This document shows positions 33,001 to 39,000 of a DNA stretch of 49,036 bases, in pieces. How positions within the stretch are numbered: position 1 is the stretch's first letter; the number at the start of each line of letters is the position of its first letter. Origin of the DNA: a virus. Lineage: Duplodnaviria; Heunggongvirae; Uroviricota; Caudoviricetes. The stretch lies in IMG/VR virus record IMGVR_UViG_2718217787_000014. One strand, given 5' to 3'. The position numbers are program-made.

Positions 33001-36000
33001 CAACAGACACCGTCAACAATGAAAAAGCCACTACCTTATGCCAACTGAGAGTTGACAGTGACAGTACTAACACAATCCACATAAGCACTCCTTTTATTTA
33101 ATGATGAAGATTGATTATCAATATTTTCAATTCACCAGGCAACATTTTATCTACCTTCCACAATACATGACCATCAAAAAATAAACATGTTAATTATAAA
33201 CACAGAAAACATAACCCTCATCACTATATATCCCTACCGCATATCCATATCTAACCGGACATTCAGAGCCATAAGCATTCCTTCAATAATACCTTCCGCT
33301 TTATAAAGCCTTTTACCAATAAGCCCATCAGAACATCTATGCTTACGTGCAAGAGCCATAAATGTCATTCCACCTACGTAATAATCCACCAACAAATCGT
33401 GCAAATACTGATTATTCTTGTTTAATCGTGCCATACAACCACAAATTATCATGGCGTCATCATCAGAACACTTAGGACGTGATTTCACTTTAGTCGGGAT
33501 TAATCCTTTAAAACCAGCAGCTATCGAGGGCCATGTTACATCTTCATGATTATTTGCTGCCCATGCCCCCCATCGCTCAAGAACCATCTGGATATCACGC
33601 GCCATCGTTACCACCTCTGATTTCGTAAATCTTCACGCCCAGCCGTCCACCTGGCACAGGCTGACCGCGCACAATATTGATTTCATCAAACTGCTCGTCA
33701 TCAATGAGCACTTCCGCATGCGTCAGCGCATCCAGCGGTGCTTTCAGAATGTTGTCCAGGTCACGGCGGCGCTTATCCGGTGGTTCTGCAATAATTTTTA
33801 TTGCCAGCCGTCCGGACAGGCTTAATTTCAGCCGCTGCTGGCGAACAATAAGCGCCACAGCCCGGCGATAACGCTCACCGGCTTTTGATACAAAATATGT
33901 GCTGCCACGACGTCGCCAGTAGGTGTTCACCGTCGGCGGGTAAGGCAAAACAAACTCTATACGCATCAGTAACCTCTTTTACCCGAGCACGCCGGTTGCA
34001 AAAGCGTGATCAAGAAAACGAAAAATTAAATCAACCTGGGAACCATGCTTTTCTTCGAACGCCAGCGGATCCGCATGAAGCTCGTTGTGATGCTCCCGAC
34101 ACAGCGGTAGCGTGAAAATATCGTGGGATTTTGTTCCCATTCCACCCTGACCATGACCAATCAGATGATGAGGATCGTCCGCTGGCTTACCACAACACGC
34201 ACACGGCTGTGTCTTTACCCAGCGTGTGTATTTCTCATTTACCCAGCGGCGACGTTTAGGTCGTTTCATGAAGGATTTCGGAGACTCCGGATCAACGGCA
34301 ATGCTGACCACCGTCTTTTCCTGTGGTGGGTTCTGTTGCTGGTGGGTGTGAGGCGGTAGCGCAATATTTTTTGTGCGCTGCTTCAGTATGCTGGTGGCGG
34401 TCTGTTCTCCCGGTATGATGTCGCTTTCACGGTATACGGAGCGGATTTTTTCCGCCGGTAATCCCAGAGAACGACGCGATACTGCCTCAGGTAATGCGTC
34501 CACCACCTGATTGCAGACTGCCCACCAGGATAATTCAGCCAGCGATAATTCCCGTTCCTGTATGCCATTCATTGCGTGGCGGATGACGTCAATCATCCAG
34601 GCGGCCAGATTCTGTTGAGCAAGTTGCTCAAGTGATTCGGATGTCTGGTCGCGCAGCTGGTTGTCGCAGTGCCAGCACAACACCATCGCGCCGGTACCGT
34701 AACGATGTATGACAGTTTCGCTGTGATGATAATCACCATGAGGCCACTGGCAGGATTTCACGTGACGTAATAACCAGTCAGACAGTGCACCAGCGCCACC
34801 CGCAGCACGGATCACCCGCTCATCGCTGAAAAATGGCAGTAGTGATTTATCTTCCGCCAGCGGCTGGTGAACGGCAGGTACAACCCCGGACGGCAGAGCT
34901 CGCATGCTTTTTGGTTCCGGCTCCACCAGTATTCTGCCGTTATGGAATGCTGACATTGATTCACGGCCTGGCTTAACGATAACCAGACCGAGTTCCGGTA
35001 CCAGAACAGGTCGAAGTAATACCCGCACATTACCTCCAGATCCGTTGCTGGAATGTGCGGGACGGACGCGGTGGCCGTTCGGAGTAAGGGAGCCTGACGG
35101 AGATTATCCAGTGACGGTAGTCGAGGCTAAGGGCTTTTTTAACCTCGCATCCGCGCCTGCGGTAACACTGAATGAGCCATTCGGCCTGTTCTTCAGTGCA
35201 TGGGGGATGCTGGTACCAGTCAGATTTGAATGCGTGAAAACACCGTCCGCGCCTGCTGGCAAAGACGGCAGAATCATCAGAATTGTATAATTTGGTATCG
35301 TGCGCCATCGGTTGTCTCTGCTGGCGCAGCAGGTGCCAGTTGTTCAGGCTGGCGTGCGAATTGTAAACCAGAATGCCAGGAAAAAACAAAACCCGCCGAA
35401 GCGGGTTAAGTGCGGGTGCGTTGAGGATGCCTGATTCATCAGAGGTGGCGAGGGATTTCTCCCCCGCCAGGTCTCTTACTCCTCAGGTTCGTAAGCTGTG
35501 AAGACAGCGACCTCCGTCTGGCCGGTTCGGACTCGTACCTCGCAGAGGTCTTTCCTCGTTACCAGTGCCGTCACTATGACGGTTAAACAGATGACGATCA
35601 GGGCGATTAACATCGCCTTTTGCTGCTTCATAGCCTGCTTCTCCTTGCCTTTCGGCACGTAAGAGGCTAACCTAGATTTGCCGTTCATAGATTGAGCCTC
35701 AGATTAATGTTAGGCGTCTTGCAGGACGCGTAATGTTAACTGGGGCTTTTCTCTATCTGCCGTTGGTGTTCATGCCCGAGGCAGATAGCCTCAAGCACCC
35801 GCAGCTATTCTACTTAACTTCCCATTACCTCGCCAATATGAAATCGGTCAGAAAGACAGACGTCCCATAAGGACAACAACGGAAAAAGAGATTTTGCTTG
35901 ATGCTATTTACCTCTGCACCATGAAGTTGCGCCAAAATCCCAGTGGTGATAACAGGAATTTGGTTGTTGGTGATTGGGGAAAGAAGTACGTTAGACTGTG

Positions 36001-39000
36001 GGTTAGTTCATTGACATGATAGTTACCTGCCTTCAATTTCCTAAGCAAGCGATGTAAACGATAATCAATATCAAATGTATTGACAGGTAAAATAATAACG
36101 ATGTACCTTTGCTGATAACATATATCAGTCTTAAATCATAATGGAGGTAGATAAAATAACTAAACACACACAACAAATTTTTTATCAGTGACATAGCATA
36201 TCTTAAGCATCCTTTAATGCTCATGGGGAGAACGCATGACTAAACATATGGACATTCATTGTCAAACACGCATATTTAACTCAATTAACCATGACACCAA
36301 ATATAAAATATGTATTTTTACTCCAAAAAACATTAAAAAAAATAATGCAACTCTTTATATACTTGATGGGAATAGTGCCAACAATTACATTTCTGATATT
36401 CTGCCTGTTATTGATGCACTACCCAATCCACCAGTGTTAGTTACACTTGGTTATGAATCTTGGAATAACCTTAGCATTCATCGCCGTGCTTACGATTATA
36501 CTCCTGATGGTGAAAATGCTATTGTTGATAACTCTAAACCAGCATGGATCTACTTTACTGGTGGAGGAAGCCAGTCTTTCCGAGAATTATTACTAACTCA
36601 GATCATGCCATGGGTTAGTACTATTGCTCCGAACAGTTCCAGAATCGGTATATGGGGACACTCGCTAGGTGCTATTTTTGTGCTTGATTGCTTAAAAAAT
36701 AATTCATGCTTTAACTATTATTATATATCTGCACCATCACTTCTATGGCAGAATGAAAGAATCATCAAGATAATTAAAGATGATATATCAGAATCAAAGC
36801 ACACTAAAAGTATATGCTTGCTTAACGGAAATCTTAGCCTTGATTACTCCGCATCTTTATATCCTGAAGCCATCAAAGCGGAATCTGTTTTGAGAAATAT
36901 TTTGACAGAAAAATACAGTAATTTTTCTATTGTACAATTTCCAGAGCTCAATCATCAGGAGACTTTCTCTGCTGCACTCTGGAATAGCATTATTCATTTC
37001 AGCATATAACAGAAAATATGTAATCACTTTATCAATCTAGCTAACATAACTGATATCAATCCTAATGGGTCTTTGAACATATTAAAAGATAACTTCTCAT
37101 TTGTACATTGTTGTGTTCTTAGACCCATTTCAAAAATACTATTTTTTAGATACTAATAATTACATCCATTTAGCTATCTTCTAAATACTCCTCTCAGTTT
37201 CTTCATTGGAGCTGATTCAACTCCGGCAATGCATACTAGGATCATTTTATAAGCATACAAACAACATCCAGACTGTGAATTATTGCTATTCATTTTCTAT
37301 GTATCTGCTCTTTTCCCATCCACTGAAACACCAGAATCCAAAGGTTTCATGTTATTTTCACTATTCCATCATTACTCCTGTGTAAAATATCAAAACTCGC
37401 TGCATCACTTCACTGTTACGGCACTCACTACAAATTATGTTCAATTGCCTGTCATAGCGGCGTATTTCTCCGTCTGGTAATGACCAGATAAGGTCAGGAT
37501 CAACCACAACCGGTTTCTTCAGTTTTGCCCTCGATAGTTTTTTGCGGGCGTTTTGCCAGTCCTTACGAGCCTGTTCAGATGGGAATAACCCGTAACCAGA
37601 GTTGTATACATCGCCACTGGCAACCAGCTCTCTGGCAAGAACGCTCATCAGATATCTTGTCGCACCTGTCTTGGCTTCCAGTTGCCGTAACGTCTCGCGC
37701 CCACTCCGGCGTACTAGCTCAACAACCTGCCCTTTAATTTTTTCCCGCTCTTCCTGTGTAAATACTTTTGCCATAAGCGCCTCCGGCAATCACTTTTCCG
37801 ATACAACACGGCGGGAAGAATCAGTAATCTGTCGAACAATATCCCGGTGCTTGTTCAGCTCCCGCAGCGCGGCGCAGACTCGCTCCCACTTCTGAACATC
37901 ACTTTTCGCCCTGCGCAGCGCCAGGTTTGCCCTGCGAAGGGACGGAAAAATCAGCTCATCTGCTTGCGTTTCGGTAAACGATGGCAACGGCTGCACAATG
38001 TCCGCCACAGTTTCTGTTTTAATTTCTTCCTGTGTTGCGGCTTCCCGGACTGGTAACGCAGCACCTGCTGGCTGAGGAAAGGCCTTACCATCACTTTCCG
38101 TTACCAGCGCGGCTTTCGGCTCTGCTGGTAAATTATCGCCCGGCATGCAGTAACGAAATTTACCGTTCTGATTAACGCGTGCCAGCCGCCCCGTTGCGGT
38201 TACCACCGCCAGCGTGGAAGCAACCTTGCGAGTACTGACACCGAACTTACCCGCCAGTTCCTCACACGTTTTAGCCCCATCCTGACCGATAAACTCAATC
38301 ATCATGTCTGCGGTAACTTTTTGTTCGACCTCCCCGGTCAGCATATCCTGTGCTTCAGATTTTACTGGCCGCTCTTCGGTTACCCGGGATTCACCTTCGC
38401 CAGCCAGAAACCAGGTGTGACCAGTTTTATCAACGACGCCATTTATTTTGAGTTCCCACAGCTCGTTGACAGCCTCTTCACGACTGATTCCAAGGCGAGC
38501 TGCCACCACATGTGAAGAGGCTTTTTTCAGTGCTTTCAGTGCGTCAGATACGGTTTCCATTAAAATTTCCTCCGGACAAAATTACTTCACAACCCTCATA
38601 TTGCTGACATTTGGACGCCAGCTATCCCAGTTAAACGTCACCCATCGACCACCGTTCATGGTCATGCGGTCCATAATCCTCTCACCAAGAAGTGTACTCA
38701 TTGCGGCATGATTCAGGTTTGTTAACATCCCGACACTGCACAGTGATGCTGTCCGGCGATCAATTATCTGGTGTAATACCACCTGCTCGTTTTTCGTCTC
38801 CCGCTGAACGCCTATTTCATCCAGGACCAGCAAATCAACACTGCAAAGCTCCTGTAAAAATTTTTCCCCGGATTTGCCGTTGTCGTAGCTGTCATGCAAC
38901 ACGCTCATGACATCAGACACGGTGACGATAATCACGCTGCGCCCCTTCGCCATCAGCCGGTTACCCATCGCCGCTGCAAGGTGATTTTTCCCGGTGCCGG

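Follow-up and report, generated by a model that had tools for sequence, protein, structure and literature searches.

A predicted leaderless IroE-like esterase carried as cargo in a lambdoid prophage of enterohemorrhagic Escherichia coli

What might a single AT-rich gene, read in the opposite direction to all of its neighbors, contribute to a lambdoid prophage or to its host? The question is raised by IMG/VR record IMGVR_UViG_2718217787_000014, a 49,036-nucleotide stretch of Caudoviricetes DNA (hereafter, the window), in which a 774-nucleotide open reading frame (ORF) at positions 36236..37009 on the plus strand encodes 257 amino acids from an ATG start. Positions 35400-37800 are 100% identical to Sp4 of E. 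coli O157:H7 Sakai and to CP-933M of EDL933. The gene is ECs_1077 (WP_000160654.1), annotated as "hypothetical protein" in Sakai and as "alpha/beta hydrolase" by the Prokaryotic Genome Annotation Pipeline (PGAP). A first-pass annotation, made without database searches, had described an alpha/beta-hydrolase with a GHSLGA nucleophile elbow and had assigned it neither substrate nor role. Our searches and structural modeling bear out the hydrolase and place it as a very divergent member of the IroE-like siderophore-esterase family, an assignment we consider well supported. Its role can thus be narrowed to that family, with a siderophore as the predicted substrate.

Family membership, active site, and the missing leader

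IroE, the salmochelin/enterobactin trilactone esterase of the iroBCDEN cluster, was the best match to the prophage protein by both sequence and structure. A phmmer search of the PDB aligned residues 8-253 to IroE at E = 5e-26 (28% identity, 97% of the length), followed by BES (9e-13), PfeE (1.5e-11), and fungal siderophore esterases (1e-8 to 1e-3). The ORF spans residues 12-260 of the 278 in the IroE crystal chain (PDB structures 2GZR and 2GZS), and a tblastn search of plasmids found the iroE gene of ColV plasmids at 28-29% identity over 97% of the length. Homology of this strength in a 774-nucleotide ORF of about 33% guanine-plus-cytosine (GC) content is far beyond chance. An AlphaFold2 (AF2) model, based on a 45-sequence alignment, had a predicted local distance difference test score (pLDDT) of 88.8 and a predicted template-modeling score (pTM) of 0.90. 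When this model was compared to the PDB with Foldseek, ranks 1 to 30 were all siderophore esterases (IroE, PfeE, BES, and fungal enzymes including EstB), with template-modeling (TM) scores of 0.78-0.84 for IroE, ~0.77 for PfeE, and ~0.75 for BES. Fes, esterase D, and S-formylglutathione hydrolase ranked after these, eight orders of magnitude weaker; the structural match to Fes and IroD, which are larger and have an extra N-terminal domain, was only E ~1e-9. The enterochelin esterases had been named among the families to check, and the protein proved to be a homolog of the IroE-like siderophore esterases.

A profile of this family gathers 1410 proteins at E <= 1e-10, and its association with siderophores is well supported. 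We read the genomic context of one close relative from outside E. coli, P0020, which at 31% identity is among the closest; its gene adjoins entE/entB/entA-like genes, two TonB-dependent receptors, and a FecCD transporter. PfeE of Pseudomonas aeruginosa and Cee of Campylobacter belong to the same family and fold, and both share the GHSxG nucleophile and the C-terminal His with the prophage esterase; the fungal EstA and EstB are family members as well. BesA (BES; PDB structure 2QM0), the bacillibactin/enterobactin esterase of Bacillus, falls in the same IroE-like fold group and is also leaderless, but the prophage esterase resembles the exported proteobacterial IroE clade more closely than it does BES.

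The donor of the gene is unsampled. Among 1.84 billion representatives of 50% clusters, the nearest relatives outside E. coli were 31-33% identical, and a search of 5.8 billion clusters returned only E. coli proteins of at least 83% identity, plus P0020. Neither collection held anything between 33% and 83%, and a scan of one genome per species found no close relative. NCBIfam gave no match, which is uninformative since true IroE and two other relatives also match nothing there. PHROGs returned only the protein's own family (phrog_8493, "unknown function"), and PADLOC returned no match, leaving a known defense system unsupported. The present annotation of "alpha/beta hydrolase" can be improved to "IroE-like esterase family protein, no signal peptide."

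The active site of IroE is retained. Residues D44, R84, S143, and H240 of the prophage protein align to D90, R130, S189, and H287 of IroE, which we take to be the described IroE active site: a Ser189/His287 dyad and an Arg130 oxyanion hole anchored by Asp90. IroE was reportedly presented by Larsen et al. in 2006 as a Ser-His dyad enzyme with an Asp-anchored Arg oxyanion hole, and PDB structure 2GZS is its diisopropyl fluorophosphate adduct. In the prophage gene, D44 lies in LDGN (codon 36365-36367), R84 in RAYDYTP (36485-36487), and S143 in the nucleophile motif G141-H-S143-L-G145, where the H142-S143 codons (36659-36664) form part of the GHSLGA elbow at IGIWGHSLGAIFV; the H240 codon is at 36953-36955. 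All four residues are present in each of the 9 distinct intact alleles, and across 131 family representatives they are kept in 131 (D44), 131 (R84), 130 (S143), and 127 (H240). By analogy with IroE, Ser143 would act as the nucleophile and His240 as the general base, with Arg84, held by Asp44, forming the oxyanion hole.

The protein departs from its relatives at the N terminus. In 41 of 42 aligned relatives, the core is preceded by an extension of 37 to 105 residues, made up of a hydrophobic signal or anchor and then an RPDMxPLGPNIADKGSAxY segment, and a leader is present in 109 of the 146 nearest cluster representatives. IroE has both the anchor/signal and the RPDMxPLGPNIADKGS motif and is periplasmic; PfeE and Cee are exported, periplasmic ferric-enterobactin esterases with a dedicated outer membrane receptor. 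In contrast, the first core strand of the prophage clade is preceded by just seven residues (MTKHMDI); no hydrophobic stretch is present, and hydropathy over 12 residues peaks at -0.25. Seven codons ahead of the ATG is an in-frame TAA, and no remnant of a lost signal peptide or of the RPDMxPLGPNIADKGS motif was found in six frames of both flanks of the gene.

Sequence and model indicate that the esterase is a complete catalytic domain and not a broken gene, because its remaining 250 residues match the crystallized IroE domain, the alpha/beta-hydrolase core that the two proteins share, almost end to end. A truncated pseudogene was considered and ruled out, since the domain is intact, all alleles share a start codon, and the ratio of nonsynonymous to synonymous substitution rates (dN/dS; see below) is low. 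The refuting case named earlier, a fragment of a larger disrupted gene, is thus true only in an evolutionary sense: the ~40- to 50-residue leader and N-terminal motif of relatives are missing, and the catalytic domain is whole. Because there is no signal peptide, we predict that the 29-kDa protein would remain in the cytoplasm. It has five cysteines and a near-neutral isoelectric point (pI), compared with two cysteines in mature IroE.

The AT-rich insert, its alleles, and its expression signals

The earlier proposal that the gene is compositionally foreign holds up in a sliding-window analysis: GC content is 0.29-0.39 over about 35850-37350, versus 0.50-0.57 on both sides. An AT-rich interval had been drawn at 35700-37360, and this was right for most of its length, since the island conserved between alleles extends over ~35983..37360 (~1.4 kb). 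The left ~280 bp do not belong to it. There, ~35690-35878 is the flank of hok/sok, common to more than 4000 E. coli genomes, and the left boundary of the island is an 87-bp remnant of ant, a P22-type antirepressor gene (35898-35984, minus strand; 76-82% DNA identity to ant of Shiga toxin [Stx] phages), annotated as a pseudogene coding sequence by PGAP. The remnant is not part of the esterase unit, and a variant prophage has a different ~200-bp sequence at this junction. These sequences suggest that the esterase slot was formerly occupied by ant.

Beyond the esterase stop codon, AT-rich non-coding DNA (37010..37360) reaches the stop codon of the DUF977 gene. This flank is confined to the 457 genomes carrying the esterase and is 74% identical between alleles, with indels. 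No ORF of at least 40 amino acids lies wholly inside it; two plus-strand ORFs (37206-37385 and 37283-37480) begin there and extend into the DUF977 gene.

The esterase is carried by 470 of 5426 complete E. coli genomes (~8%), at >=99% identity in 457 (O157:H7, O145:H28, O103:H2, and relatives) and at 90-95% in 13. Because the neighboring DUF977 gene is found in 4142 of the same genomes, the esterase is an optional insert. A related prophage without the esterase (L008) has two unrelated genes in the slot, and the 90% allele occupies the same hokD-esterase-DUF977-DUF1627 arrangement in prophages with a lambda-P/DnaT-type replication module. This variable slot upholds the proposed independent acquisition. 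As a compositionally distinct insert between conserved phage genes, absent from related phages, the esterase is a self-contained prophage moron, and it resembles other lambdoid prophage morons in its independent acquisition, composition, and placement. By analogy with these, its expression is probably driven by its own signals, and its benefit would plausibly fall to the host rather than the phage.

Three allele groups (89-100% amino acid identity) occur in this slot in different lambdoid prophages. Across them, dN/dS is 0.16-0.25 with a synonymous divergence (dS) of up to 0.32; the start codon, ribosome-binding site (RBS), and catalytic residues are invariant, and 21 of 22 sampled copies are intact. 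These values indicate that the esterase is under purifying selection. Damaged copies do occur: one IMG/VR locus (L027, 5001-5770) has a 1-nucleotide deletion that causes a frameshift, the copy in complete genome NZ_CP074982.1 (H174) is split between two places, and a 209-residue version in another genome (P0017) is N-terminally frameshifted and C-terminally truncated. The DUF977 gene beside the 90% allele carries a frameshift or has been shortened at two loci (L009, 5139-5556; L005, 2085-2378), with 97 residues called versus 137-142 in Sp4.

IMG/VR added 19 loci, all of the same esterase clade; a profile scan of IMG/VR found no distant viral relatives, with the limited sensitivity of the pattern. 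A DNA search of 50,697 deposited phage genomes did not find the gene, and protein matches in the phage collection were true IroE in mislabeled or host-containing records. Among BFVD viral structures, only generic hydrolases were matched (best TM score, 0.57; best-ranked match, 0.53). Plasmid records contained only true IroE-type genes of <60% identity, plus one EDL933 record. That record, NZ_CP124741.1 (a PLSDB "plasmid" of 286,775 bp), is the only one in the plasmid database with the esterase; it probably contains chromosomal prophage sequence and may be misassembled or mislabeled. Neither this gene nor phage-encoded siderophore esterases were the subject of any paper found when the literature was searched by locus tag, accession, and topic.

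The signals around the gene are consistent with expression as a separate unit. The good RBS noted previously is present: a Shine-Dalgarno sequence read from the DNA, GGGGAGAA (36225..36232, plus strand), has a GGAG core that ends 5 nucleotides before the ATG and is unchanged in the 90% alleles. The 253-bp AT-rich region upstream of the gene (35983..36235, plus strand), a presumed promoter/operator, is 87% identical between alleles. Against a divergence of ~26% at synonymous sites and an identity of only 74% in the downstream flank, this conservation points to constraint on the upstream regulatory DNA. Within it are TTGACA hexamers at about 36011 and 36081 (plus strand) and a predicted promoter-like sequence, ATAACA-16-CATAAT (36115-36142, plus strand); shuffled versions of the region contain at least as many such promoter-like sequences. 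Downstream, 55 nucleotides past the stop codon, is a terminator-like element (37064..37150, plus strand) consisting of a long hairpin, AAUGGGUCU...AGACCCAUU (66 nucleotides, 37064-37129), and a U-rich run. The predicted RNA fold has an energy of -23.6 kcal/mol (z = -3.5; 0 of 200 shuffles fold as well), and the stem arms are kept in the 90% allele. A simple terminator scan did not call the hairpin, its loop being too long. Together, the intact alleles, upstream conservation, and hairpin fit a functional, independently transcribed moron. We envisage transcription of the esterase alone from the conserved upstream region, opposite to the phage early-right operon, so that it could be expressed in the lysogen.

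One published observation may concern this locus. Z1341, a CP-933M gene, was upregulated 2.5-fold together with exbB and chuU on epithelial contact (PMC2654852). Z1344 is the RusA endonuclease (PMC2907692), and Z1341 therefore lies within three genes of the esterase and could, though need not, be the esterase gene itself.

Candidate function and its alternatives

We judge it moderately probable that ECs_1077 encodes a cytoplasmic, IroE-type Ser-His esterase that acts on catecholate trilactone siderophores or their linear oligomers and is expressed from its own signals in the lysogen. On this reading, the gene is prophage cargo encoding a catalytically competent member of the IroE-like family that has lost its export leader. 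Its substrates would be the ester bonds of serine- or threonine-based catecholate trilactones (enterobactin-type, possibly xenosiderophores) or of linear oligomers. The outcome would be either release of iron from imported ferric catecholates, as by Fes, IroD, and BesA, or linearization of enterobactin. BesA, Fes, and IroD are precedents for trilactone hydrolysis in the cytoplasm. A possible lead on iron regulation is a Fur-box-like match of 15/19 at 36054-36072, a score reached by 2 of 500 shuffles of this AT-rich region; the variant allele has 14/19.

Several observations weigh against this reading. The worry that there might be no hydrolase-family hit does not apply given the strong matches to solved structures, though the match to the Pfam Esterase model (PF00756) was partial (residues 81-161) and scored 17.0 bits (E = 0.005) against a gathering cutoff of 22, which relatives of the esterase do pass. 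Among the annotated neighbors, no siderophore receptor, transport, or biosynthesis gene is adjacent. The prophage esterase is an orphan, unlinked to iroBCDN or any siderophore locus, whereas iroE lies inside iroC-D-E-N, and BesA, Fes, and IroD are encoded in siderophore operons. E. coli O157:H7 also possesses Fes, so that a further enterobactin esterase in the cytoplasm would seem redundant. The 15/19 Fur-like site does not overlap the best promoter-like site, and no Fur box with three or fewer mismatches was found near the gene. With its ~33% GC content, the gene is also a likely target of H-NS and may be largely silent.

A further point concerns the active site. At the end of strand beta7 (residue 197), 32 of 42 IroE-clade relatives have Glu, that of "MEG" in IroE, and the prophage alleles have Asn or Ser (N/N/S); residue 199 is N, D, or E among the same alleles. 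PfeE is described with a Ser-Glu-His triad. The end of beta7 is where a triad acid usually lies, and this position may correspond to the triad acid of PfeE; for the fungal EstB, the PDB mutant E211Q suggests a triad acid. If an acid is required, the activity of the prophage esterase, which has no fixed acid there, could be weak or altered. We treat its loss as a caveat and not as evidence of inactivity, because IroE is described as a dyad enzyme and this column is not conserved among the 131 wider family representatives.

Some of these features would also be expected of a working esterase that has acquired a non-siderophore substrate, such as another cytoplasmic ester or a depsipeptide, so that its likeness to IroE reflects ancestry only. 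Identity to any relative of only ~28-33%, loss of the leader, the N-terminal motif, and the clade-typical Glu197, the distance from siderophore genes, the score below the Pfam threshold, and a nucleophile-to-His segment shorter than that of IroE are all compatible with such a change. However, the four residues of IroE chemistry are all kept, among them the unusual Arg oxyanion hole and the Asp that anchors it; siderophore esterases fill the 30 best structural ranks without exception; and no other family scores comparably. We therefore think a new substrate unlikely. Somewhat less probable again is that the gene is inert cargo, an export-defective and xenogeneically silenced IroE-like leftover that hitchhikes in successful prophages of enterohemorrhagic E. 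coli (EHEC). This could explain a very AT-rich gene that is leaderless when nearly all relatives are not, that shows occasional pseudogenes (the L027, P0017, and H174 copies), and for which no literature was found; with 457 of 470 carriers at >=99% identity, mostly in clonal EHEC lineages, prevalence need not mean selection. Against idleness stand the low dN/dS over three allele groups at appreciable dS, the sameness of start codon, RBS, and catalytic residues in all alleles, an upstream region more conserved than synonymous sites, and a 774-nucleotide ORF that is still intact despite its AT-rich, stop-prone composition.

The leaderless enzyme might instead act outside the cell, where, freed by lysis of some lysogens, it would degrade or linearize the catecholates of competitors or of its own population in the gut. 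The gene is prophage encoded and leaderless, its characterized close relatives IroE, PfeE, and Cee act outside the cytoplasm, and Stx and NanS-p are precedents in EHEC for prophage enzymes released by lysis. NanS-p of Stx phages is another prophage-borne esterase, of an unrelated fold (SGNH/DUF1737) and encoded in the late region. In contrast, ECs_1077 lies outside the late operon, so its expression is uncoupled from lysis, and neither its five cysteines nor its near-neutral pI gives any sign of adaptation to an oxidizing compartment; we consider this route improbable. Least credible, and in our view very improbable, is a host-directed enzyme, whether a type III-secreted effector or of some other kind. 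The low GC content and EHEC-restricted distribution may recall effector genes outside the locus of enterocyte effacement, and AT-rich cargo of EHEC lambdoid prophages may frequently be of that kind. But effector genes usually sit downstream of the tail-fiber genes, where this gene does not lie; its homology throughout is to bacterial siderophore esterases; and we know of no published effector screen that lists ECs_1077.

Prophage cargo largely sets O157:H7 and related EHEC apart from commensal E. coli and is mostly annotated as "hypothetical." For a gene that is near-invariant in ~8% of complete E. coli genomes, there is now a specific and cheaply testable hypothesis, the hydrolysis of catecholate siderophore esters by an IroE homolog that lacks a leader. 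A broader proposal, which is speculative and which we would not expect to hold in full, is that EHEC-lineage lambdoid prophages carry an iron- or host-responsive, IroE-type siderophore-remodeling enzyme, re-targeted to the cytoplasm or released by lysis. If it is true, O157:H7 could obtain iron from those catecholate xenosiderophores on which Fes works poorly; alternatively, conversion of enterobactin to linear forms could alter lipocalin-2 evasion and gut competition. The enzyme would then be the first phage-borne siderophore esterase and a contributor to fitness or virulence that had gone unrecognized among prophage genes. Should the activity prove real, iron acquisition would gain a link to a lambdoid prophage, and a periplasmic enzyme would be seen re-compartmentalized through leader loss; if the protein is inactive or silent, it would be a clean case of a moron that is conserved yet idle. 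Either way, the esterase is recognizably part of a known enzyme family, and a prophage moron is a familiar setting; its leaderless orphan form is unusual, and no new mechanism is demonstrated.

Neighboring genes and other features of the window

The esterase lies on the opposite strand to its surroundings, between the replication and nin genes. Its neighbors are all on the minus strand according to the Sakai annotation, PGAP, and ORF calls: one flank has hokD with sok RNA, DUF968, RusA, and Q, and the other has DUF977, DUF1627, and genes for DnaC-like and O-like proteins. Between hokD (35476..35688, minus strand) and the DUF977 gene (37361..37789, minus strand), it is the sole credible plus-strand gene, in agreement with the first-pass annotation. 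Another plus-strand ORF annotated in Sakai, ECs_1079 (35733..35870), overlaps the sok/hok leader, was dropped by PGAP, and is probably not a real gene.

The hokD/sok type I toxin-antitoxin locus is complete (35476-35800, minus strand), with a 105.6-bit match to the Rfam sok family (RF01794). An Rfam scan of 35300-37500 found sok only, the rest being sub-threshold noise. Directly 3' of hokD, at 35386-35467 on the minus strand, is a sub-threshold match to IsrK, an Hfq-binding prophage small RNA (27.1 bits; gathering score, 50; E = 0.0027).

Elsewhere in the window, the sole Fur-box match with three or fewer mismatches, CAAAATGATAATAATTATC, is at 23421-23439 on the plus strand (16/19; 0 of 100 window shuffles gave any), in a stretch without an ORF of at least 60 amino acids. 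A second AT-rich cargo block, with a GC content of 0.34-0.39, is found at 32100-33450 and encodes the CPBP/CAAX intramembrane protease ECs_1085 (32264-33082, minus strand) and ECs_1086. Beyond this block are the gene for the AraC-like regulator psrA (ECs_1087; 30930-31517, minus strand) and the transfer RNA genes ileZ-argN-argO (30652-30901).

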